From: Mobula hypostoma
Lineage: Eukaryota
DNA: 64,000 bases
Assembly: GCF_963921235.1 (NCBI RefSeq)
Contig: NC_086097.1
Location: forward strand, 55,430,001 to 55,494,000
Reading direction: 5' to 3'
Position 1 is the stretch's first letter. Every line of letters begins with the position of its first letter. Below, piece after piece: positions 15,288 to 63,826 of this stretch. The notes beneath the pieces are model-generated. The model was not told where the DNA came from. It searched no databases and saw only the letters and a list, made by a program, of their open reading frames with translations. The position numbers were made by a program, and so were the translations under genes.

Positions 15288-16934
15288 CAGGTTTCCCCCG
15301 CTATCCGAAGGTAGAGCGTTCCAATGAAACGGTTCGTAAGCTGGAATGTCATAAAGTGAAGAAGCAATTACCATTTAATTATGTGGGAAAAATTTGTGAG
15401 CGTTCGCAGACCCAAAAAATAACCTACCAAATCATGCCAAATAGCACATTAAACCTAAAATAACAGTTACATATAGTAAAAGCAGGAATGATATAAATGC
15501 ACAGCCTATATAAAGTAGAAATACATTTCTATAATCATTGCTGCACTGTCCACTGTAGCGAAAATCTCATGCAAGCGCTCTCGGCAGAAACACACTTTCC
15601 AGCAACCTTAAAGCTATGAAGCTGCCAAATCATACCAAATAACACATAAAAATACACAGTCTATATAACGTAGAAATAATGTATGTACAGTGTAGTATCA
15701 CTTACTGAAATCGGGAAGGCAGCGCTAAGCACACTGATGATGGTGTGTTAGGCTGAGTCGTCGGAGGTTGGGGTGGTGCAGTGGTCCCCAACTTCCAGGC
15801 CGCGGACCAATACTGATCTGCGAAGCATGCAGGGGTGCAACGGTAGCTGGGAGGCACCCAGCACATCTTTAAGAAAAAAGCCGAAATAAACAAGCCAATT
15901 AATTAGGTGCCACCCGGCACGTAAATGTCGGCCCAGATCAGAGGCGACGCAATCGGCAATTGCCCCTGACCTGGGCCGACATTTATGTGCTGGGTGGCAC
16001 ATAATAAATTAGCTTGTTTATTTTGCCTTTTTTCTTAAAGATGTGCTGCGTGCGTCCCGGCCACCGCTGCACCATTGCGTGCTTCACGGCACTGTATTGG
16101 TCCGCGGGAGGTTGGGGTGGTGGGACACTAGGGTGTCATCTCATTGTCGACTGTTTCCATCAGGGCAGGCAGGTCATCTTCTTCTATGTCTGCCTGCCTC
16201 AATGTCGAAGGTCAAGGTCCGTCGTCTGCTGTGGCTGATGTGGAAGGCTTGAAAAACGACGTATGCTTGACTGCTTAGCCTTGCGCATTTTTCTATCATA
16301 CAGTTCTTTGTAAGCACTCAAACCATCCTGCAAATATGCCCTAAACGTATGTACCCTTTCAAAGTTAAAGTCGTACTTTTCTGCAATCATTGCAGCTAAA
16401 ATCTCACGCAGTTGCTTCACGTTCAGTTCCTGGACGACTTCACTTTCAGTCCGTTCGCTACTGCATTCGGTTTCAATTGTTATCCTTTTCTCTTCCAATT
16501 GCATCAGCTCTTCATCTATCAGTTCTTGGTCATGGGATGCCAAAACCTCTTCAACATCATCTTCGTCAGCTTCCACAAGCCAAACTGACTTCGTCCTTAC
16601 TTCATTCACCACGATCACAATGCTTAATTATGTCTAGTTTTCTGCTAAGTGTAACACCCTTACGAGCTCTTTTGGGCTTTTCCGATACCGGAGAACTCAC
16701 CTTGCTAATGGATGCTCAAAATAAATCAACATAAAGCACAGATGCTCACAGGCACATGTTTAAGCAATGCCAGCTAGAATGCAGTTCTGGGGGAGGAGCT
16801 TTGCTGCTTGGGGCGCGCTGCCTTTTTTCGTAACAGTGAAAACACCTTCTGTTAGCGAAAACAGGTAACTAATGTAGGTCTTTCTTAACAGCAAGGTGTC
16901 GTAAAGCGAACGTTCGAAAAGCGGGGGACACCTG
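15288..16934 (-). mobile_element. Non-autonomous Tigger/pogo-like element, copy 2 (inverted relative to copy 1)
   Basis: TA-flanked, same TIRs as copy 1. ORF 16199-16618 (-) contains EVLASHDQELIDEELMQL; internal hairpin at ~15785-16117. Confidence 0.92.
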
Positions 16935-17833: not shown

Positions 17834-18745
17834 GTAGGTTCAATAGGTACATTTAATGTCAGAGAAATGTATACCATATATGTCCTGAAATTCTTTTTCT
17901 TCACAAACATCTACGAAAACAGAGGAGTGCCCCAAAGAATGAATGACAGTTAAATGTTAGAACCCCAAAGCCCCCGCCCCAGCTCCCCCCTCAAATGCAC
18001 AAGGCAATGACTGTTCCTCCCCCACCAGCAAAAAAGCATTGGTGTCCTTCACCGAGCACTCAAGCGTGCAGCAAAGCATCAATAAAGACACACACTTGCA
18101 GGACCCCAGAGACTACTCATTCACCTAGTAATTAGACATAGTACAGGCACTCTCTCTCATTAATAAGGGAAAAAGAGATGTCCCTGTTTCGCAGCAAGAG
18201 GGGAGATAAAACAAACAACTGGCTGATCTATGGTGTTAAAAGTCTGTTATGTTGCTTTTTCCGAGCCCTGCACCCAGAGAATCGACCCCGGAAAGACTCA
18301 GGTCTCTGGACACACAGCCAGCAGCTAGCCCGTTGCTCCTGAAGTTCCATGTTCCCTCGTGAGGCCTCAGTCAGTCTCCAGAGCCACGAAAATCTAGCAC
18401 CCTGAAGGTGCGCTGGTCTTCCAGGCCGTGTCCTTGGGGTATCAAAAAGTGGCCGGTCATGAGGCCCTGAGAGCGGGTCCCATTCCTGCAAAGAACTGAA
18501 GTCAGAGAGTAACTCCAGGTCAGGGTCTTGAAAAGAACCTTAAAAAGGAAAAAAAGAGATATCAAAGATAGAAATAGAGCTGCTTCGAAGATGCAAGTGA
18601 AGGAGTTCCCGTTTAGCACCATCCTGATGGTAACAATGAGAAGAGAACATGTCCAGGATGGTGGGGGTCTTAAACATTAGACCCCCAAAGCCCCCTTTCC
18701 ATCCATCTCCCCCCTCCCACGCACAAACAGCAGCAAGGCAACGAC
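17834..18745 (-). repeat. Non-coding retroposon (same family as 57535-57880) inserted in a Rex1-like 3' fragment
   Basis: Reverse complement of the 57535-57880 sequence; TCATTA duplicated at 17828-17833 and 18746-18751. Confidence 0.7.
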
Positions 18746-18831
18746 TCATTAAGGACACCCCACCACCCTGGACATGCCTTCTTTTCATTGTTACCATTAG
18801 GAAGGAGGTACAGAAGCCTGAATGCACACAC

Positions 18832-21013
18832 AAACATCTCTCAGTGGGAGAGTATTTTGGAGATAGTGATCACAATTTTATCTCCTTTACCATAGCATTG
18901 GAGAGGGATAGGAACAGACAAGTTGAGAAAGCGTTTAATTGGAGTAAGGAGAAATACGAAGCTATCAGGCAGGAACTTGGAAGCATAAATTGGGAACAGA
19001 TGTTCTCAGGGAAATGTATGGCAGAAATTTGGCAAACGTTCAGGGGATATTTGCGTGGTGTTCTGCATAGGTACGTTGCAATGAGACAGGGAAAGGATGG
19101 TAGGGTACAGGAACCATGGTTTACAAAGGCTATTGAAAATCTAGTCAAGAAGAAAAGAAGAGCTTACGAAAGGTTCAAAAACTAGGTAACGATAGAGATC
19201 TAGAAGATTATAAGGCCAGCAGGAAGGAATTTAAGAATGAAATTAGGAGAGCCAGAAGGGGCCATGGGAAGACCTTGGTGGGCAAGGTTAAGGAAAACTC
19301 CAAGGCATTCTACAAGTATGTGAAGAGCAAGAGGATAAGATGTGAGAGAATTGGACCAATCAAGTGTGACAGTGGAAAAGTGTGCATGGAACCGGAGGAG
19401 ATAGCAGAGATACATAATGAATGCTTTGCTTCAGTATTCACTACGGAAAAGGATCTTGGCGATTGCAGGGATGGCTTACAGCAGATTGAAAAGCTTGAGC
19501 ATATAGACATTAAGAAAGAGGATCAAGAAAACATCAAGTTGGATAAGTCTCCGGGACTGGATGAGATGTACCCCAGGCTACTGTAGGAGGTGAGGGAGGA
19601 GATTGCTAAGCCTCTGGCAATGACCTTTGCATCATCAATGAGGACGGGAGAAGTTCTGGAGGATTGGAGGGTTGCAGATGTAACCTTATTCAAGAAAGGG
19701 AGTAGAGATAGCCCAGGAAATTATAGTCCAGTGAGTCTTACTTCAATGGTTGGTAAGTTGATGGAAAAGATCCTGAGAGGCAGGATTTATGAACGTTTGG
19801 AGAGGCATAATATGATTAGGAATAATCGGCATGGCTTTGTCAAAGGCAGGTCATGCCTTACGAGCCTGATTGAATTTTTTGAGGATGTGACTAAACACGA
19901 AGTTAGAGCAGTAGATGTAGTGTTCATGGATTTCAGCAAGACATTTGATAAGGTACCCCATGCAAGGCTTATTGTGAAAATGAGGAGGCATGGGATCCAA
20001 GGGGACATTGCTTTGTGGATCCAGAATTGGCTTGCTCACAGAAGGCAAAGAGTGATTGTAGACAGGTCATATTCTGCATGGGGGTCAGTGACCAGTGGTG
20101 TGCCTCAGGGATCTGTTTTGGAACCCCTTCTCTTCATGATTTTTACAAATGACCTGGATGAGGAACTGGAGGGATGGGTTAGTAAATTTGCTGATGACAC
20201 AAAGGTTGGGGTTGTTGTGGGTAGTGTGGAGGGCTGTCGGAGGTTACAGCGCGACATCAATAGGATGCAAAACTGGGCTGAGAAGTGGCAGATGGAGTTC
20301 AACCCAGGTAAGTGTGAGGTGGTTCATTTTGTTAGATCAACTATGCTGGGAGAGTGTAGTATTAATGGTAAGACTCTTGGCAGTGTGGAGGATTAGAGGG
20401 ATCTTGGGGTCCGAGTCATCTGTGGGATTGAGTTTAAGAGCCGAGAGATAATGTTACAGCTATATAGGACCCTGGTCAGACCCCACTTGGAGTACTGTGC
20501 TCAGTTCTGGTCACCTCACTACAGGTAGAAACTATAGAAAGGGTGCAGAGGAGATTTACGAAGATGTTGCCTGGATTGGGGAGCATGCCTTATGAGAATA
20601 GATTGAGTAAACTTGGGCTTTTCTCCTTGGAGCAGGGGAGGATGAGAGGTGACCTGATTGAGGTGTAGAAGATAATGAGAGGCTTTGATCATGTTGATAG
20701 TCAGAGGCTTTCCCAGGGCTAAAATGGCTAACATGAGAGGGCACAGTTTTAAGGTGCTTGGAAGTAGGTACAGAGGAAATGTCAGAGGTAGGTTTTTTTA
20801 TGCAGAGAGTGGTGAGTGCGTTGAATAGCCTGCCAGAAATGGTGGTGGAGTCAGATATGATAGGGTCTTTTAAGAGATTCCTGGATGAGTACATGGGGTT
20901 TAGGAAAATAGAGGGCTATGGGTAACCCTAGGTAATTTCTTAGTAAGTACATGTTCGGTACAGCATTGTGGGCTGAGGGGCCTGTATTGTGCTGTAAGTT
21001 TTCTATGTTTCTA
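18832..21013 (+). mobile_element. CR1 LINE, 5'-truncated ORF2 (end of endonuclease plus RT) and 3' UTR
   Basis: GDSDHN, KSPGLD, DFSKTFDKVPH, SGVPQGSVL, KFADDTK; tail TTCTATGTTTCTA; few stops or frameshifts. Confidence 0.93.
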
Positions 21014-27114: not shown

Positions 27115-27865
27115 TTATACTGTGTATGTACATCTATTGGTGCTTCTGGACACATCTTCAGTGATGTCCCTGGAATCATTGGGTGTTTCGGGTCTTTCAA
27201 CATCATACAACGTCCTCCAGGTGACCCAGCTGGGGCTCATCAGACCCCAGCTTGTGTCCAGATGGCTCAGCTACTTATGATGGTCTTCAGGACCTGATCA
27301 TACCTCCACCTGTACTGTCCCTCACCAAGTGCCCTTGCACAGCCGCTGAGGATGTGCTCCAGGGTTCCTCGCTTGGAGCACAGTGGGCACGCAGATGACT
27401 CTGCCTTGCCCCATGTGTGCAGGTTTGATGGGCTTGGAAGCACATCGTACACTGCCTGGATGAGAAATTGGATGCGGTGCGGTTCAGCTTTCCAAAAGAT
27501 CAGCCCAGGTCACTTTCCTCTCAACCACATTCTCCCATCTTGTCCAAGCTCCCTGTTGCTTCATTCCCACTGCCTTGCAGGCTCTCATCTCCTCCACTAC
27601 TGCTTTCACCTCCTCCTGAACTAGACGACGCTTTTCCTTCCCCCTGGTGTCCATTTTGGGAGTTGGAAAGGATCCTAGCCCAGCTTGGCCTTGTGTGACC
27701 ACTCCCACCAGCCTCCTGTGACGGAGCCTCGCCTCTGCCTCCTGAACAGCTTCCTCTGCCCTCCACTTCCTGCCAGTACTTACTTGGATCCCTGCTCTAG
27801 CCACCTTCGGGTCACTTGAGTCCCTATACTGTAGCACTTCTCTGGCTCTTGTTACCTTGAATTCT
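27115..27865 (-). mobile_element. HERO-like non-LTR retrotransposon fragment, subfamily A (endonuclease deleted)
   Basis: TGRKWRAEEAV...QGAWTRWE, YDVLPSPSNLHTWG, zinc knuckle CPLC...HILSGC and YRWRYDQVL, followed directly by the 3' UTR. Confidence 0.88.
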
Positions 27866-27884
27866 TAGATTATGCTAACAGAAC

Positions 27885-40970: not shown

Positions 40971-42170
40971 CTCTCAATGGCCACTTTATTGGAGACACCT
41001 GTACACCTGCTCGTTAATGCAAGTATCTAATCAGCCAATCATCTGGCGGCAACTCAATGCATATGTAGCGACTATGCCCTACTTGACTTCTGTTCGTCTA
41101 GGGTAAACTGGCGTTGACCCTGCCAACTCTGTAATTGTGTTGGTGTGGATACTGTGTGATTGCACCCTGGTACAAGCCCAAGACATAAAGTATCAGATGA
41201 CAATAGGCAAGTAAATGATTACACTTTATAATTATTTCTCGGTGATGGGTTGGTAGAAACAAATAAAATAAAGGTGCCAAATCAATAAATTTTATCAGTT
41301 CTGTGCACAAATAATCCGTTGGAGCTCACAAAATTCTGTATCTGTTCCTCCCCTCGATCTCCTCCGAACTCTGTCGACCTAACAGAGCGCTGGACTCACG
41401 TCCAATGTCTTCTCTTCTCCTCCATCAAAAACCCGCGCTTCTCCTCTGGTTCCCACACATACAAATAGAATAACATGACTTCCATTGGCTAGCAAATGAA
41501 TACAAGTCCCGTTATTACTAATTATAACCAAAACATGCTGCTACAGAGAACCTCTTACTCAGCAGTTAACAGTACAGAGAAGCCATTTTGTCAGCCTTAA
41601 CAATTAACATTATAATGAGTATTACTGAGAACCCTACGCATGAAAACATGCAGACATGATTAAGAGTCTCAGCTGTTGTTTAAATCAAATAGCAGAATGG
41701 GGAAGAAATGTGATCTAACTAATGTTGACTATGGTATGATTGTTGGTGCCAGGCGGGGTGGTTCAAGTATCTCAGAAACCGCTGATCCCCTGAGATTTTC
41801 ACGCACAGTAGTCTCTAGAGCTTAAAGAGAATGGTGTGAAAAACAAAAAAAAACTTCCTGTGAGTGGCAGTTCTGAGGGTGAAAATGCCTTGTTAATAAG
41901 AGAGGTGTTTTCACCCATAGAACTGCCACTTGCTGGATGTTTTTTGTTAACAAGAGAGGTACAGGAGAATGGCCAGACTGTTTTAAGCTGACAGGAAGGT
42001 GACTGTAACTCAAATAACCACACGTTACAACAGTGGTGTGCAGAAGAGCATCTCTGAATGCACATGTCAAACCTTAAAGTGGATGAGCTGCAACAGCAGA
42101 AGACCATGGATGTGCCCTCAGTGGCCACTTAATCAGGTAAAGGAGGTGCTGAATAAAGTGTCCACTTTTG
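40971..42170 (+). mobile_element. Non-autonomous Tc1-like element (transposase N-terminus only) interrupted by a solo LTR
   Basis: Ends TGGCCACTTTATT / AATAAAGTGTCCA; MGKKCDL...GMIVGARRGGSSISETAD remnant at ~41697-41830. Confidence 0.8.
41064..41638. mobile_element. Solo LTR related to 21479-22173
   Basis: TGTAG...CTACG termini; imperfect TSD CATA/CATG; shares GTTGGAGCTCA and AGAAGCCATTTT blocks; host Tc1 sequence resumes across it. Confidence 0.7.
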
Positions 42171-42171
42171 G

Positions 42172-42992
42172 TATATCCCAAGTTGGTATGATACATAACT
42201 TATCTCATGCCCCATGCTGCACAGAACATCGTATATCGTTTGTGAAAGAAGGCTCCAAGTCAAGGATGTACAGCGCAGGCCCACGATCAAGCATACTTTC
42301 TTCAGCCAATGATTGGTGTGTCAAGGCCGACCTGATGGGAAAGGCAGTTTCCCGGAGCTAATAGCTTTCACCACATTGCGTCCAGATATAATCGTATGGT
42401 CTGACACCAGTAGAGAAGTGGTTATTGGTGAACTCACAGCCCCCTGGGAAGACAACATCGATGAAGCCCATGAGCGCAAGTTAAACAAGTATGCAGAATT
42501 AAGGTCAGAGTGCAGAGACAGAGGGTGGAAGGTCTCATGCTATCCATTTGAAGTAGGCTGCCGTGGGTTTATTGTGTTCACTTTCCAGAAGTGGCTGTGT
42601 GACCTTGGCTTCACTAGAAGAGAGATCAAGTCAAGCAGCAGGGCTGTAGCTGAGGCAGCAGAGACAGGATCAGCATGGGTGTGGACTAAGTATGTCCAGA
42701 GGGGCAGATAGTCGGACAGTGTATACATATTTTGCAAACCCTTCAGTAGTTGCATAGGCACCTGAAGAGTAGACTATCTGTTGGATAGGAGCGACCAACA
42801 ACTCTGATAGAGGCAGATGCTGAGTTTTTAAGCTCACCAGTGGGAGGTGGTGCTTTAGCACCGCTGGCCCACCACCTCGAGGGAGTCTTGATCAGGAGTG
42901 GGCTGAAACTCCTGAAGACAGGTGGCAGATCAACTGATGATCCCACTGGTGATAGCACAGGACAGTTAACATCTTAGTCCATGTGTATTTTC
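42172..42992 (+). mobile_element. HERO-like non-LTR retrotransposon 3' fragment, subfamily B (endonuclease domain open to stop at 42711)
   Basis: TTLRPDIIVWS...GELTAPWEDNIDEAHERKLNKYAEL...PFEVGCRGF (PD-(D/E)xK-type restriction-like endonuclease), followed by a structured 3' UTR. Confidence 0.9.
42834..42952 (+). ncRNA. Candidate permuted, pseudoknotted hammerhead-like RNA with K-turn in a HERO-like 3' UTR
   Basis: GTC 42885-42887, GAAAC 42905-42909, CTGATGA 42934-42940. All flanking helices pair and covary with the copies at 27145-27262 and 13058-13170. Confidence 0.6.
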
Positions 42993-47895: not shown

Positions 47896-48462
47896 GTGGA
47901 GACTGAAACCAATGTTCTTCAAGATGGCTCGCTTGTTGATCTTTGTGGAGCAACACTTCTGTGGAGAACAGCTGATGGCCTGTTCCATACTCCTACCCAA
48001 AAACACATTGAGGCTCTTCGACAGGAGATAAATGCCGCTAGACCTCAGTGCCCAGTTGGTCTTAATACCTTAGCATTTCCCAGCATTAATCGTAAGGACA
48101 TTGTGGAAGAGAAACAGCCTTGGGCTTATCTCAGCTGTGGACATGTCCATGGTTACCACAACTGGGGACATCGCAGTGATACAGAAGCCAATGAGCGGGA
48201 ATGTCCCATGTGCAGAACTGTGGGTCCATACGTACCCCTTTGGCTAGGTTGTGAAGCAGGATTTTATGTGGATGCTGGTCCTCCGACACATACATTTAGC
48301 CCATGTGGACATGTGTGCTCTGAAAAAACAGCAAAATATTGGTCACAAATTCCATTGCCACACGGTACTCATGCATTCCATGCAGCGTGTCCTTTCTGTG
48401 CTATTCAACTGAATGGAGAACAAGGCATCATTAAACTCATTTTCCAGGGACCAATTGACTGA
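47896..48462 (+). CDS. PELI2: Pellino-2 last coding exon (end of FHA region plus RING-like domain, stop TGA)
   Basis: ttcctag|GTGGAG; VETETNVLQDGSLVDLCGATLLWR...CGHVHG...CPMC...CGHVC...CPFC...KLIFQGPID*. Confidence 0.98.
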   Translation: METETNVLQDGSLVDLCGATLLWRTADGLFHTPTQKHIEALRQEINAARPQCPVGLNTLAFPSINRKDIVEEKQPWAYLSCGHVHGYHNWGHRSDTEANERECPMCRTVGPYVPLWLGCEAGFYVDAGPPTHTFSPCGHVCSEKTAKYWSQIPLPHGTHAFHAACPFCAIQLNGEQGIIKLIFQGPID

Positions 48463-53540: not shown

Positions 53541-54539
53541 GTAGGCATCATTTGTAGGTAAGCATAATAATTACCAGATCCTCCTCCATTTTTAGAAATG
53601 AATCACTTATATGGTTTGATAACAAAAGTGTGAAAAAGATGTCATTTTAAAAAATATATATTTTTGGATATGACATCACTGACAACACTAGCATTAATTG
53701 TCTCTTAATTGACCTTGCGAAGATGTTGTTGAGCTATCTTTTTGTATTACTGCAGTCTTTCGGGGGAAAATATTTTTGCAATGTCATGGGAACTGAGTAT
53801 TGCAGGTTTGGGAGATATTGTTGGAATAAACTAGCTGTGTAAATGCATTGCAAAATCTTATATGTTTTGTGTATCTTATTATTCTAAACTTTAGACATCA
53901 TCTTTCCTCACTGGTCAAATCCTTCATCCCAGAAATCAGTCAAGTAAACCTTTCTGCACCACTTCAAAAGTAAGTCTATCCCTCCTTAAATAAGAAAGCT
54001 AAAATTGTGTAAAATACTCCAGATGTGCGCACACTTAGTATAACTGTAGCAAGATTTTTTATTCTTGTACTTCATTTCTCTTATAGATGATAACTTGCTA
54101 TACTTGAATACAAACTTATGGTGTTTCTTGTCTCTCTGAATATCAATGTGTAATATCTTCATACCATTTAATTAATATTTAAATTTTTAATCTTTTATCC
54201 ACTAAAGTGATGACCACTCTCCTGTTAGACTGTTTGTGGTTAACTTATTTCTTATTCTTTCTACTTCCCTTCTAATATTTATATCTGTGCACTTGTAATG
54301 CTACTGTGACACTGATTTCCTTTGAGGTCAATAAAGTATCTATCTATCTAACCTCAAACTTCTTCATACTGTACAATATCTGCCATTTTTGTACTCACTC
54401 ACTAAACCTGTTCATATCCCTTTGCTGATTTGTGTTCTTCACAGTTTATCATTTATTTTTGTGTTACAAGCAAACCTGATGCATTAAATTCCATTCCTCC
54501 ATTTAAGTCATTAATATGGACTATAAATATGCAATTTTA

Positions 54540-56183
54540 CCAGTGCCTAAGAAGAGTTGTAAGTTGTCTTAATGACAATCGTCCAGTAGCACACACATCT
54601 ACAGTGATGAAATGCTTTGAGAGGTTGGTCATGGCTAGAATGAACTGCCTCAGCAAAGAACTGGACTCACTGCAATTTGCCTATCACCACAATAGGTCTA
54701 CTGCAGATGCAATTTCAATGGCTCTTCACATGGTCTTAGATTACCTGAACAGTTCAAACACCTATGTCAGGATGCTGTTCACTGACTATAGCTCGGGATT
54801 TAACACCATCATTCTCACAGTCCTGTTCGATAAGCTACAGAACCTGGGCCTCTGTACCTCCCTCTGCAATTGGATCCTCGACTTCCTAATTGGAAAAACA
54901 CAATCTATGTGGATTGGTGATAATATCTCCTCCTCGCTGACAGTCAACACTGGCACACCTCAGGGGTGTGTGCTTAGCCCACTGCTCTACTCCCTCTATA
55001 CCCGTGACTGTGTGGCTAAGTATAGCTCAAATGCTATCTATAAATTTGCTGAAGATGCAACTATTGTTGGTAGGTGTAGAAGCCTGAAGGCACACACTCA
55101 GTGACTCAGGAACAGCTTCTTCCCTTCTGCCATCCGATTCCTAAATGGACATTGAATCTTTGGACACTACCTCACTTTTTGTAATATACAGTATTTCTGT
55201 TTTTGCATGTTTTAAAAAATCTATTCAATATATGTAATTGATTTACTTGTTTATTTATTATTTAAAAAAATTTATTACATTTTTTCCTCTCTGCTCGATT
55301 GCATTGAGCTGCTGCTGCTAAGTTAACAATTTCAAGTCACATGCCGGTGATAATAAACCTGATTCTGATAGAATCTCAGATTGAGTTGAGAGTGCATGCA
55401 AGAGCGAGATATACTGGCTAGTTGAGTAGTATTGCAGCAACAACCACGCACTCAGTAAGGTGAAAGAGCTGATTGTGGACTTCAGGGAGGATAAGATGAT
55501 GGAACACGAACCAATCCTCAGAGGGATCAGAAGTGGAGAGAGTGAGCAATTTCACGTTCCTGGGTGTCAAGATCTCTGAGGATCTATCCTGGTCCCAACG
55601 TATCAATGCAGCTATAAAGAAGGCAAGACAGTGGCTAGATTTCATTAGGAGTTTGAAGAAGTTTGGTTTGTCACCTAAAAACACTCAAAATCTTCTATAG
55701 ATGTACCATGGACAGCATTCTGACAGGCTGCATCACTGTCTGGTATGGGGGGAGAGACTACTGCACAGGACCAAAAGAAGCTACAGAAAGTTGTAAAATT
55801 AGTCAGCTCCATCTTGGATACTGGCCTCTGTAGTATCCAAGATGTAGTGCCTCAGAAAGGTGGTGTCTATTATTAAGGACCCCTATCACCCACTTTTATT
55901 ATTGTTACCATTAGGAAGGAGGTACAGAAGCCTGAAGGCACACACACAATGATTCAGGAACAGCTTCTTCCCCTCTGCAATATGATTTCTAAATGGGCAT
56001 TGAACCCATGAACACTACCTCACTTTTTAAAATATATATTATAACTATATATCTATATGTATGTATTTACTGCAATTGATTTACTTATTTTTTTCTATGT
56101 TGTTATGTATTGCATTGTACTGATGCTGCTGTTAACAAATTTCATGACAAATGCTGGTGATAATAAACTTGATTCTGATTCTG
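54540..56183 (+). mobile_element. Rex1/Babar-like RT fragment with a nested 3' end of the same family (~55074-55368)
   Basis: [35 protein letters not shown]; tails AATAAAC(C/T)TGATTCTGA. Confidence 0.9.
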
Positions 56184-58069: not shown

Positions 58070-59635
58070 CGAAGGCAATAATTATACCAGTGCCTAAGAA
58101 GAATAACATGGGCTTCCTTAATTTCTATCGCCCGGTAGCACTCACATCGACAGTGATGAAATGTTTTGAGAGGTTGGTCATGACTAGACTGAACTCCTGT
58201 CTCAGCAAGGACCTGGACCCACTGCAATTTGCCTATCGCCACAAAAAGTCAATGGAAGATGCAATCTCAATGGCTCTCCACATGGCTTTAGACCACCAGG
58301 ACACCACAAACACCCATGTCAGGATGTTGTTCATCGACTATAGCTCAGCATTTAACCCCATTATTCCCACAATCCTGATTTGAGAAGTTGCAGAACATGG
58401 GCCTCTGTACCTCCCTCTGCAATTGGATCCTTAACTTCCTAACCATAAGACCACAATTTGTGCGGATTGGTGAGTCACAGAATACACGTGGACTAAGATG
58501 TTAACTGTCCTGTGCTATCACCAGTGGGATCATCAGTTGATCTGCCACCTGCCTTCAGGAGTTTCGGCCCACTTATGATCAAGACTCCCTCAAGGTGGTG
58601 ATAACATATCCTCCTTGCTGACGATCAAAACTGGCGCACCTCAGGGGTGTGTGCTTAGCCCACTGCTCGACTCTATAAACACACGACTGTGTGGCTAGGC
58701 ATAGCACAAATACCATCCATAAATTTGCTGACAATACAGCCATTGTTGGTAGAATCTCAGGTGGTGATGGGAGGGTGTACAGGAGTGAGATATGCCAACT
58801 AGTGGAGTGGTGTTGCAGCAACAACCTGGCACTCAACGTCAGTAAGACGAAAGAGCTGATTGTGGACTTCAGGAAGGGTAAGACGAAGGAACACATACCA
58901 ATCCTCATAGAGGGATCAGAAGTGGAGAGAGTGAGCGGTTTCAAGTTTCTGGGTGTCAAGATCTCTGAGGATCTGGCTTTTACCTACATATTGATGTAGA
59001 TATAAAGAAGGCAATATAGCAGCTATACTTTATTAGTAGTTTGAAGAGATTTGGTATCTCTTCGAAACCTTCTTCTATAGTTGTACCGTGGAGAGCATTC
59101 TGACAGGCTGCATCACTGTCTGGTATGGAGGGGCTACTGTACAGGACTGAAACAAGCTGCAGAAGGTTTTAAATCTAGTCAGCTCCATTTTGGGTACTAG
59201 CCTACAAAGTACTCAGAACATCTTCAGGGAGCGGTGTCTCAGAAAGGCAGCTTCCATTATTAAGGACCTCCAGCACCCAGGGCATGCCCTTTTCTCACTG
59301 TTACCATCAGGTAGGAGGTACAGAAGCCTGAAGGCAAAAACTCAGTGATTCAAGAACAGCTTCTTCCCCTCTGCCATCCGATTCCTAAATGGACATTGAA
59401 TCTTTGGACTTTACCTCGCTTTTTTAAAATATACAGTATTTCTGTTTTTGCATGTGTTTTTAATCTATTCAATATATATATACAGTAATTGATTTACTTA
59501 TTTTTAAAAAAATTTTATTTATTACTATATTTTTCTCTGCTAGTTTATGTATTGCATTGAACTGCTGCTGCTAAGTTAACAAATTTCACATCACATTCTA
59601 GTGATAATGAACCTGAATCTGATTCTGATTCTGAT
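58070..59635 (+). mobile_element. Rex1/Babar-like LINE 3' half
   Basis: [49 protein letters not shown]; tail (GATTCT)n. Confidence 0.92.
58474..58595 (-). mobile_element. 122-bp HERO-like (subfamily B) 3'-end insertion inside the Rex1 RT
   Basis: Reverse complement of ~42875-42992; TGGTGA duplicated at 58468-58473 and 58596-58601. Confidence 0.88.
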
Positions 59636-59972
59636 TAACTTTGGAAGATGGTAAATGTTCTCTGCATCCCCCTCCTTAATAACTCATGAAGATACAAGGT
59701 ATTTATGAGCCCTGGCCCTGTTAGAGAAAGTATATTAGGCAAACTACGCTTTCAACTTCCTCACTCTGTTGCCCCTCAGCTATCAACTGTTTTTACTACA
59801 CTTATAACAAATACAACGTGTATACATCTTTTTAACTATTTCATTATTCACTATATTAATCTCCTCGGCTCAGCTTTCATAGAAGAAGCATTAACTTTGC
59901 TGCATGCTTTACTCCAGAAGCACCTACAATCTATTTTTGTATTCAGAACATAGAACAGTCTCTCACAGGAAC

Positions 59973-61890
59973 TCCTGCCCCACCGAACTCGTTTCTGCAT
60001 ACCTCGACAGGGTTTTATCCCCCCTTGATCAATCCCTTCCTACCTATGTTCGTGACACTTCTCACACTCTTAAACTTTTCGATGATTTTAAGTTCCCTGG
60101 CCCCCACCGCTTTATTTTCACCATGGATGTCCAGTCCCTATATACTTCCATCCCCCATCAGGAAGGTCTCAAAGCTCTGCACTTCTTTTTGGATTCCAGA
60201 CCTAATCAGTTCCCCTCTACCACCACTCTGCTCAGTCTAGCGGAATTAGTCCTTACTCTTAATAATTTCTCTTTTGGCTCCTCCCACTTCCTCCAAACTA
60301 AAGGTGTAGCTATGGGCACCCGTATGGGTTCCAGCTATGCCTGCCTTTTTGTTGGCTTTGTGGAACAATCTATGTTCCGTGCCTATTCTGGTATCTGTCC
60401 CCCACTTTTCCTTCGCTACATCGACGACTGCATTGGCGCTGCTTCCTACACGCATGCAGAGCTCGTTGACTTTATTAACTTTGCTTCCAACTTTCACCCT
60501 GCCCTCAAATTTACCAGGTCCATTTCCGACACCTCCCTCCCCTTTCTAGATCTTTCTGTCTCTGTCTCTGGAGACAGCTTATCCACTGATGTCTACTATA
60601 AGCCTACTGACTCTCACAGCTATCTGGACTATTCCTCTTCTCACCCTGTCTCTTGCAAAAACGCCATCCCCTTCTCGCAATTCCTCCATCTCCGCCGCAT
60701 CTGCTCTCAGGATGAGGCTTTTCATTCTAGGACGAGGGAGATGTCTTCCTTTTTTAAAGAAAGGGGCTTCCCTTCCTCCACTATCAATTCTGCTCTTAAA
60801 CGCACCTCCCCCATTTCACGTACATCTGCTGTCACTCCATCCTCCCGCCACCCCACTAGGAATAGGGTTCCCCTGGTCCTCACCTACCACCCCACCAGCC
60901 TCCGGGTCCAATATATTATTCTCCGTAACTTCCGCCACCTCCAACAGGATCCCACCACTAAGCACATCTTCCCCCCCCCCCGCATTCTGCAGGGATCGCT
61001 CCCTACGCGACTCCCTTGTCCATTCGTCCCTCCCATCCCTCCCCACTGATCTACCTCCTGGCACGTATCCGTGTAAGCGGAACAAGTGCTACATATGCCC
61101 TTACACTTCCTCCCTTACCACCATTCAGGGCCCCAAACAGTCCTTCCAGGTGAGGCAACACTTCACCTGTGAGTCGACTGGGGTGATATACTGCGTCCAG
61201 TGCTCCTGATGTGGCCTTTTATATATTGGCAAGACCCAACGCAGACTGGGAGACCGCTTCGCTGAACACCTATGCTCTGTCTGCCAGAGAAAGCAGGATC
61301 TCCCAGTGGCCACACATTTTAATTCCACATCCCATTCCCATTCTGACATGTCTATCCACGGCCTCCTCTACTGTAAAGATGAAGCCACACTCAGGTTGGA
61401 GGAACAATACCTTATATTCCGTCTGGGTAGCCTCCAACCTGATGGCATGAACATCAACTTCTCTAACTTCCACTAATGCCCCACCTCCACCTCGTACCCC
61501 ATCTGTTACTTATTTTTATACACACGTTCTTTCTCTCACTCTCCTTTTTCTCCCTCTGTCCCTCTGAATATACTGCTTGCCCATCCTCTGGGTCCCCTCC
61601 CCCCCGTCTTCCCATGATCCTCTCGTATCCCTTTTGCCTATCACCTGTCCAGCTCTTGGCTCCATCCCTCCCCCTCCTGTCTTCTCCTATCATTTTGGAT
61701 CTCCCCCTCCCCCTCCAACTTTCAAATCTCTTACTCACTCTTCCTTCAGTTAGTCCTGACGAAGGGTCTCGGCCTGAAACGTCGACTGCACCTCTTCCTA
61801 GAGATGCTGCCTGGCCTGCTGCGTTCACCAGCAACTTTTATGTGTGTTGCTTGAATTTCCAGCATCTGCAGAATTCCTGTTGTTTGCATT
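59973..61890 (+). mobile_element. Young 5'-truncated Penelope-like element (RT, Cys-rich linker, GIY-YIG endonuclease; Neptune-like)
   Basis: TMDVQSLYTSIP, GVAMGTRMG, RYIDD, LPFLD, CKRNKCYIC, GVIYC...LYIGKT...RFAEH; 10-bp TSD TCACAGGAAC (59963-59972 / 61891-61900). Confidence 0.94.
61751..61788 (+). ncRNA. Minimal type I hammerhead ribozyme of the Penelope-like element
   Basis: TAGTC-CTGACGA-AGGGTCTCGGCCT-GAAAC-GTC^GACTG; stem III reduced to palindromic ACGT. Confidence 0.85.
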
Positions 61891-63200: not shown

Positions 63201-63496
63201 TTAGAGGTGGACGCAAAGAGAGAGAGGGGAAAAATGTTGAGAGGCAGATGGAGCAAGGTAGAGGGATGTGAGTGTTAAGGTCAGGTATTACTGCAGGAAC
63301 AAAACAGGGCTACTCAGCACTGGACTCTGATAAGTAAAGGAGGTGAAAATGGGAACCGTTAGGGAAGAGGTATGGAACCAGAATGAGATTGGAGAGGAGG
63401 CAGAGCAGAGATGACGGGGGGGCTGCTGGGGGGAGGGGGGGGGGATCAAGAGCCACTTGACGCCATTTTTGACAACATGACTTTCCTGAAATACTA

Positions 63497-63826
63497 TACT
63501 CAGTGGCCACTTTATTAGGTACTTCCTATACCTAGTAAATAGGCCACTGAATATATGTTCATGGTCTTCTGCTGCTGTAACCCAGCCACTTCAAGGTTTG
63601 ACATTTTGTGCATTCGGTGGTGCTCTTCTGCGGAACACTGTTGTAATATGTGGTTATTTGAGTTATTGTTGCCTTCCTGTCAACAAGAACTAGTCTCGCC
63701 ATCCTCTTCTGACCTCTCATCAAAACAAGGCATTTTTGCCTACAGAACTGCTGTTCACTTTTTCGTTTCTGACATGTTTCTCTGTAGACTCTGGAGTGTG
63801 TGAATATCCCAGGTGATCAGCAGTTT
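63497..63826 (-). mobile_element. Fragment of the Tc1-like family at 40971-42170
   Basis: Terminal mini-palindrome CTCAGTGGCCACTTTATTAGG...GGCCACTGA and reverse-complement match to ~41780-42110. Confidence 0.75.

Follow-up and report, generated by a model that had tools for sequence, protein, structure and literature searches.

The 64,000-nucleotide window analysed here, from contig NC_086097.1 of Mobula hypostoma, contains on its minus strand (27145-27262) a compact series of helices next to a retrotransposon reading frame, and the question it raises is whether these are the traces of a functional RNA and what such an RNA would do for the element. A sequence-only reading had described this stretch as a divergent relative of a hammerhead-like fold found elsewhere in the window. 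We conclude that it belongs to the 3' tail of an R2-like LINE that carries a conserved, multiply knotted fold and that, to judge from comparative sequence data, is probably a working hammerhead ribozyme of an unreported layout; the self-cutting RNA would likely trim, and possibly circularise, the element's own transcript.

The remnant containing the fold (family A; Table 1) is 94-96% identical to a full-length genomic copy, L097. Proteins of the family carry a reverse transcriptase domain (RVT_1), their closest solved relatives are the R2 proteins (E 3e-27), and their relatives are single ORFs of 1,100-1,200 codons with a CCHC knuckle, which is also present in the reading frame upstream of the fold. 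Motifs of nuclease type were read by eye at the C-terminus of the family protein, and we take these to be of the restriction-like nuclease type. The host element is thus an RLE-clade (R2-like) non-LTR retrotransposon, presumably of the family named HERO. A Penelope-like element was considered and rejected: the expected GIY-YIG nuclease and telomerase-like reverse transcriptase are absent, the domain being RVT_1 with R2 proteins closest. Homologues are present in fish, amphioxus and molluscs, which fit the host groups named for HERO members in PMC7650587.

Table 1. Features of the two element copies and the tail fragment in the 64-kb window; assignments to hammerhead parts are predictions.
Feature	Position	Strand	Details
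R2-like (presumably HERO-type) non-LTR retrotransposon remnant, family A	27120..27866	-	5'-truncated, internally deleted
Internal deletion in family A remnant	27279/27280		about 530 nt, including the endonuclease region, lost before the tail
Outer helix, 5' arm	27253..27262	-	pairs with 27154-27145, 10 bp; would close the four-way junction
Hairpin	27228..27252	-	8 bp; second added arm of the putative four-way junction; directly 3' of the outer helix 5' arm and directly 5' of G10.1
Stem II, 5' strand	27223..27227	-	27227 is G10.1; partner 27194-27190
Interaction (distal) helix, 5' strand	27216..27221	-	position as helix 'I' of type-SGC hammerheads (PMC10085705)
Stem III 3' strand (hammerhead scheme) and GUA triplet	27206..27212	-	GTA at 27208-27206
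Predicted cut	between 27206 and 27205	-	
Stem I, strand 3' of the predicted cut	27200..27205	-	partner 27167-27162
Block G	27181..27194	-	stem II partner 27194-27190, G12-A13-A14 27189-27187, stem III partner 27186-27181
GAAAC	begins 27189	-	
Interaction helix, 3' strand	27169..27174	-	
Stem I partner and CUGAAGA core	27155..27167	-	stem I partner 27167-27162, C3-A9 27161-27155
Outer helix, 3' arm	27145..27154	-	directly 3' of A9
Element end	27120..27144	-	no poly(A); family A ends about 86 nt past the predicted cut
Same fold, family B	42834..42952	+	element remnant 42194-42991; triplet GUC, H17 at 42887
Third copy, family B tail fragment	58481..58600	-	120 nt, 98% identical

Read 5' to 3', the RNA begins with the 5' arm of the outer helix, the hairpin, the 5' strand of stem II, the interaction helix, the stem III strand, the NUH triplet and stem I; after a short linker come the stem II partner, GAAA, the partners of stem III, of the interaction helix and of stem I, then CUGAnGA and the 3' arm of the outer helix. 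The order of blocks (S, G, C) with a short linker between stems I and II is a feature of type-SGC hammerheads, and the interaction helix is formed with 4-10 bp in all 27 non-redundant tails compared. CUGAnGA is separated from the 5' strand of stem II, which sits upstream, and in 41 of 44 parses the path from A9 through the outer helix and the hairpin to G10.1 contains no unpaired base. Judging by this gapless arrangement, the outer helix probably stacks with the hairpin in a four-way junction that takes the place of the backbone step from A9 to G10.1, such that a normal catalytic core can form; the A9-G10.1 step would then become the crossover of the junction.

The fold is real and old. The 27145-27262 stretch is more stable than expected (z = -4.3), and not one of 200 shuffles reached its stability. 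A whole-fold descriptor was run over both strands of the window, over metagenome loci, and over shuffled and reverse-strand sequences. Within the window it matched only the 27145-27262 copy and the copy at 42.8 kb; it matched none of 4,400 dinucleotide shuffles and nowhere in 60,111 nt of reverse strands, and in 389,630 nt of upstream sequence gave two matches, both genuine tails. Among 79 metagenome loci chosen by protein similarity alone, blind to the tail, the descriptor finds the fold downstream of the ORF in 42; many of the other 37 have little sequence after the ORF, and 12 have a worn form, a label assigned by eye. In a quick, midpoint-rooted protein tree, from which 6 of 81 rows shorter than 250 aa were left out, the fold is limited to one branch (SH-aLRT 97) of 65 rows, 43 of them with the full fold, 11 worn, 6 too short and 5 without it, and it is absent from the 10 remaining rows. 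The core letters do not change between lineages in which protein identity to the query is only about 31-47%.

Covariation was assessed in the 27 non-redundant tails (less than 80% identity, mean identity 54%), which are related, such that counts are not those of independent events. All helices covary; for each of five helices, 24-27 of the 27 tails form the first five pairs, mostly with three to six pair types. When strands were swapped between families, pairing in the first five positions of each helix fell from 4.8-4.9 to 2.3-3.6, and in a sequence-only MAFFT alignment the ten strongest covarying column pairs all belong to the model. The sequence-only reading had named the helices and core motifs of the minus strand and had proposed that selection acts on their structure; the helices and motifs are all present at their positions, and the covariation bears out the proposal.

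The assignment of stems I, II and III as well as of the core, also proposed earlier, holds in a search in which no letters were imposed. For this we scanned 71 tails using only six helices and spacings of hammerhead geometry, and 41 scored at least 27, a limit chosen after seeing 24 reverse-strand controls, the best of which scored 26.6. CUGAnGA, GAAA and UH lie at the predicted places in 37 of these 41; of the other four, two have a single G12A change, one has a core slipped by a base and one is unrelated. In 37 of the 41 top parses C3-U4-G5-A6-N7-G8-A9 adjoins stem I and G12-A13-A14-A15.1 lies between stems II and III. Because the core was found without imposed letters it is not an artefact of the search. 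Within the 37 tails G16.2, U16.1, C15.2 and G10.1 are invariant, the closing pair G10.1-Y11.1 has C or U at 11.1 throughout, and the NUH triplet is always GUH. Position 7 takes all four bases (T20 A10 C4 G3), and position 17 is never G (C17 T11 A9). A fixed core with freedom at positions 7 and 17, and no G at 17, is the known hammerhead fingerprint, and judged from these patterns catalysis by the tail RNA is likely. The GUU triplet cuts more slowly than others, and the U at position 17 in 11 of the 37 tails suggests slow cutting. The two tails with the G12A change (L216 and L244) have perfect helix scores and the change from G12 to A lies in a CpG context; it is likely decay of single dead copies.

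Stem III is the one helix in which this copy is clearly weakened. Four of its six pairs are formed, in line with the partial decay described earlier, and the copy is a dead relic; the three core-proximal pairs are intact, as they are in most family A copies. The sequence-only reading had further predicted that the subfamily consensus would restore a perfect stem, GGGTGT/ACACCC. This was correct for the outer G, restored in 27 of 29 family A copies, and incorrect for the fourth pair, which is mismatched in the majority: among 29 copies picked by their ORF, blind to the tail, GGTTGT occurs in 22 and GGGTGT in one. Most family A copies have a T at 27210, giving a U-C mismatch and five of six pairs. 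Exact matches across the genome number 1,679 for the mismatched form and 238 for the perfect form, a 12% minority. The sister families L178, L191 and L177 have stem III fully paired with other letters and the fourth pair is formed in 25 of the 27 non-redundant tails. The paired state is therefore old, the mismatch having arisen late, within the most widely spread branch in this genome.

Insight into how the tail might be used comes from the ends of genomic copies. When full-length copies are selected by their 5' start, a stub of the element's own tail precedes 27 of 30 family A and 29 of 30 family B copies. These stubs are joined at a fixed point and vary in length from 14 nt to at least 1.5 kb, although only one of the 60 stubs reaches 1.5 kb. 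The whole fold is held by 18 of 30 family A and 14 of 30 family B stubs, so that read-through transcripts with two ribozymes are expected. Stubs are shorter than ordinary truncated copies (median 266 versus 586 nt among those of at least 86 nt, p = 3e-5, with the stub of L317 dropped from the body set and L136 counted as stubless). At the other end, 35 of 57 copies reach one base or more into the head sequence, often one to three bases, which fits either an internal start or a target preference. The tandem layout puts the fold a short way upstream of the ORF. In families A and B we looked for an accumulation of copy ends at the predicted cut and found none: no copy among 30 picked by a 3' piece starts there, each family has just one stub in 30 that comes within 3 nt of it, and 20 of 30 (A) and 16 of 30 (B) stubs run past it with no break. 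As copies cross the site without a mark, the RNA that is copied is either uncut or resealed.

In distant lineages the head of the element has a conserved motif, beginning with CAGTGAC and followed by CCAGGAA and CTGG, partly repeated, about 100-140 nt past the predicted cut in tail-to-head junctions (L171:223, L177:128, L179:2302, L180:1595, L187:2505 and L190:1430, and the heads of L097 and L091). It may be where the element's protein binds, downstream of an internal start like that of Penelope, or else a promoter within the element. Among 46 longer metagenome loci, 13 start with sequence that recurs further down, and two of these (L235 and L241) are outside the fold-bearing branch. Together with L227 and L243 these two are metagenome relatives outside that branch; L235 and L241 gave no Rfam match and have no hammerhead core downstream of the ORF, and the tails of the four may hold another ribozyme.

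The reading that we prefer is one in which a read-through transcript would hold two ribozymes, and cutting at both would free a unit-length RNA that could be closed to a circle, or kept by its fold as a nicked circle. Copying of this RNA would begin internally, about 86 nt past the cut, and an enzyme running past one full round would remake the stub in each generation. Such a cycle would explain why catalysis has been kept and how the stub is remade, and the shorter stubs fit it, as if copying stalls soon after one round. For the circle role itself, with its double cut, closure and copying past one round, we regard the odds as about even. The broader proposal, that the whole clade may replicate through circular RNA by cutting and resealing a seventh hammerhead layout, with the reverse transcriptase rolling past one round, is put forward tentatively and falls a little short of even. 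Several observations sit poorly with the ribozyme and circle reading. Copies neither begin nor end at the predicted cut, the most successful family A branch has the stem III mismatch, and U is common at position 17. Four helices tie both products together, so release would not be ready. L235 and L241 repeat their start without the fold, and the tandem layout may thus not need it. Moreover, the hammerhead of one Penelope element cuts and yet is not needed for copying in vitro (PMC11167929).

The strongest alternative retains an active ribozyme and dispenses with the circle: uncut tandem RNA would be the template, copied from an internal start as in Penelope, and the cut would serve another step, candidates being the formation of a message 5' end for cap-independent translation or a switch from template to message. 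The scarless crossing of the cut site by copies is what this predicts, the Penelope element PAc behaves in this way in vitro (PMC11167929), in fungal viruses cleavage by a hammerhead is enough to bring about cap-independent translation (PMC13725137), and in the tandem layout the fold is located just ahead of the ORF. However, a linear-only cycle would lose the junction or shorten the stub in each round, and with long upstream copies so rare something would have to remake the stub; in addition, stubs stop sooner than body truncations. We consider this alternative somewhat less probable than the circle, a possibility to be taken seriously rather than the expected outcome.

A non-catalytic structure that docks the reverse transcriptase, with hammerhead-like letters kept for folding or protein binding, appears improbable. 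It would account for a fold at the 3' end, where LINE proteins bind, for the missing genomic trace of cutting and for the stem III mismatch in the dominant branch, and predicted minimum-energy folds lack joint stems I-III, although the program used cannot form pseudoknots. A binding site, however, need not keep every hammerhead core position while freeing just 7 and 17 and barring G at 17. Nor do the helices conflict with a hammerhead, other than for the stem II of canonical type SGC, whose pairing when offsets are allowed stays at background (3.0 bp versus 2.65 bp between families), whereas the upstream stem II pairs over 5.3 bp versus 3.3 bp between families.

That same pairing decides how the RNA is classified. 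A canonical type-SGC hammerhead, in which stem II would be built from the bases after CUGAnGA while the outer helix served as an off switch, is very improbable: the S-G-C order agrees with it and the stretch following the core in family B could make 6 bp, with an offset, with the strand before GAAA, but in-register pairing of five out of five occurs in none of the 27 tails (mostly two or three pairs) against 22 of 27 for the upstream strand. As block C is broken and the stem II strand is not directly 3' of CUGAnGA, we do not file the RNA as type SGC; it is a split-core relative, SGC-like in working and not SGC by definition. Rfam models gave no hammerhead or other fitting family in the 64-kb window or in 17 loci, seven of them with the fold, and hence no match to the nested three-way junction of hammerhead types I, II and III.

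Type-SGC hammerheads, with S-G-C blocks and a helix that links stems I and II on their far sides, self-cleave, and they have and need this interaction helix (Eckert et al. 2023, PMC10085705). The tails described here share with HRIMA-1 and its variants, as presented in that text, the S-G-C order, the short stem I-II linker, the joining helix and all core letters; they differ in that block C is split, the 5' strand of stem II lies upstream and two extra helices intervene between A9 and G10.1. The same authors state that insertions longer than one or two bases are not known at the joints of CUGAnGA with its stems. The literature searched contained no report of a ribozyme in HERO tails or of a hammerhead split at A9/G10.1; passages of PMC8782182, PMC10162972 and PMC3088659 hold nothing on a split-core layout, and PMC13725137 cites Weinberg 2015 among reports of hammerheads with additional helices or other permutations.

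Three groups of mobile elements offer parallels. Penelope-like elements share partial tandems with a hammerhead in the repeated end (pseudo-LTRs), an internal reverse transcription start and copies that ignore the cut site (PMC11167929; PMC6765202), and the hammerhead of the element PAc cuts with protein help while uncut RNA is copied from an internal start (PMC11167929). Theirs, however, is a GIY-YIG and telomerase-like reverse transcriptase combination with a hammerhead of ordinary layout, in contrast to the R2-like reverse transcriptase, CCHC knuckle and presumed restriction-like nuclease found here. R2 elements with 5' HDV-like ribozymes have the closest solved proteins, and their ribozyme frees the element from co-transcripts (PMC6765202, PMC7650587), whereas the ribozyme predicted here is a hammerhead, is located in the 3' tail and does not coincide with the ends that genomic copies have. 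Retrozymes have two hammerheads in repeats flanking the unit and are thought to replicate via circles (PMC6765202), but are non-coding and borrow the proteins of LTR elements, while this element encodes its own protein.

If correct, the interpretation would break the published rule that the three blocks of a hammerhead cannot be interrupted, and would add a layout missed by Rfam models. It would also place a non-circularly permuted ribozyme, of a kind until now known nearly exclusively from environmental contigs, at high copy number in animal genomes, the clade of R2-like LINEs having thousands of copies in this one, and would have these LINEs converge on the Penelope and retrozyme way of life. 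It further provides a testable account of why they lack poly(A) and are preceded by a stub of their own tail.

The window has other elements of interest. Its two fold copies (27145-27262 in family A, 42834-42952 in family B) are 52% identical over the motif, and the third, fragmentary copy is without the outer helix, hairpin and upstream stem II strand, its start lying some 9 nt ahead of the predicted cut. Searching the same genome by protein for further families gave 30 loci at 51-52% identity to the query, several of which are known family B places. The last coding exon of a Pellino gene (the end of Pellino_FHA plus Pellino_RING) is at 47896-48462 on the plus strand; the family B element, in the same orientation some 5 kb upstream, possibly lies within an intron, from where, if active, it would cleave the pre-mRNA. 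A frameshifted element with a weak RVT_1 match lies at 59895-61209 (+), presumably Penelope-like by its C-terminal Cys motifs, and further LINE reverse transcriptase fragments (RVT_1) are at 18640-20396 and 54406-55104 (+). Long inverted repeats at 41855-41937, 63492-63558, 2282-2360 and 15905-16002 have weak microRNA-model scores, below the gathering scores, and are likely MITE-type or other repeats.
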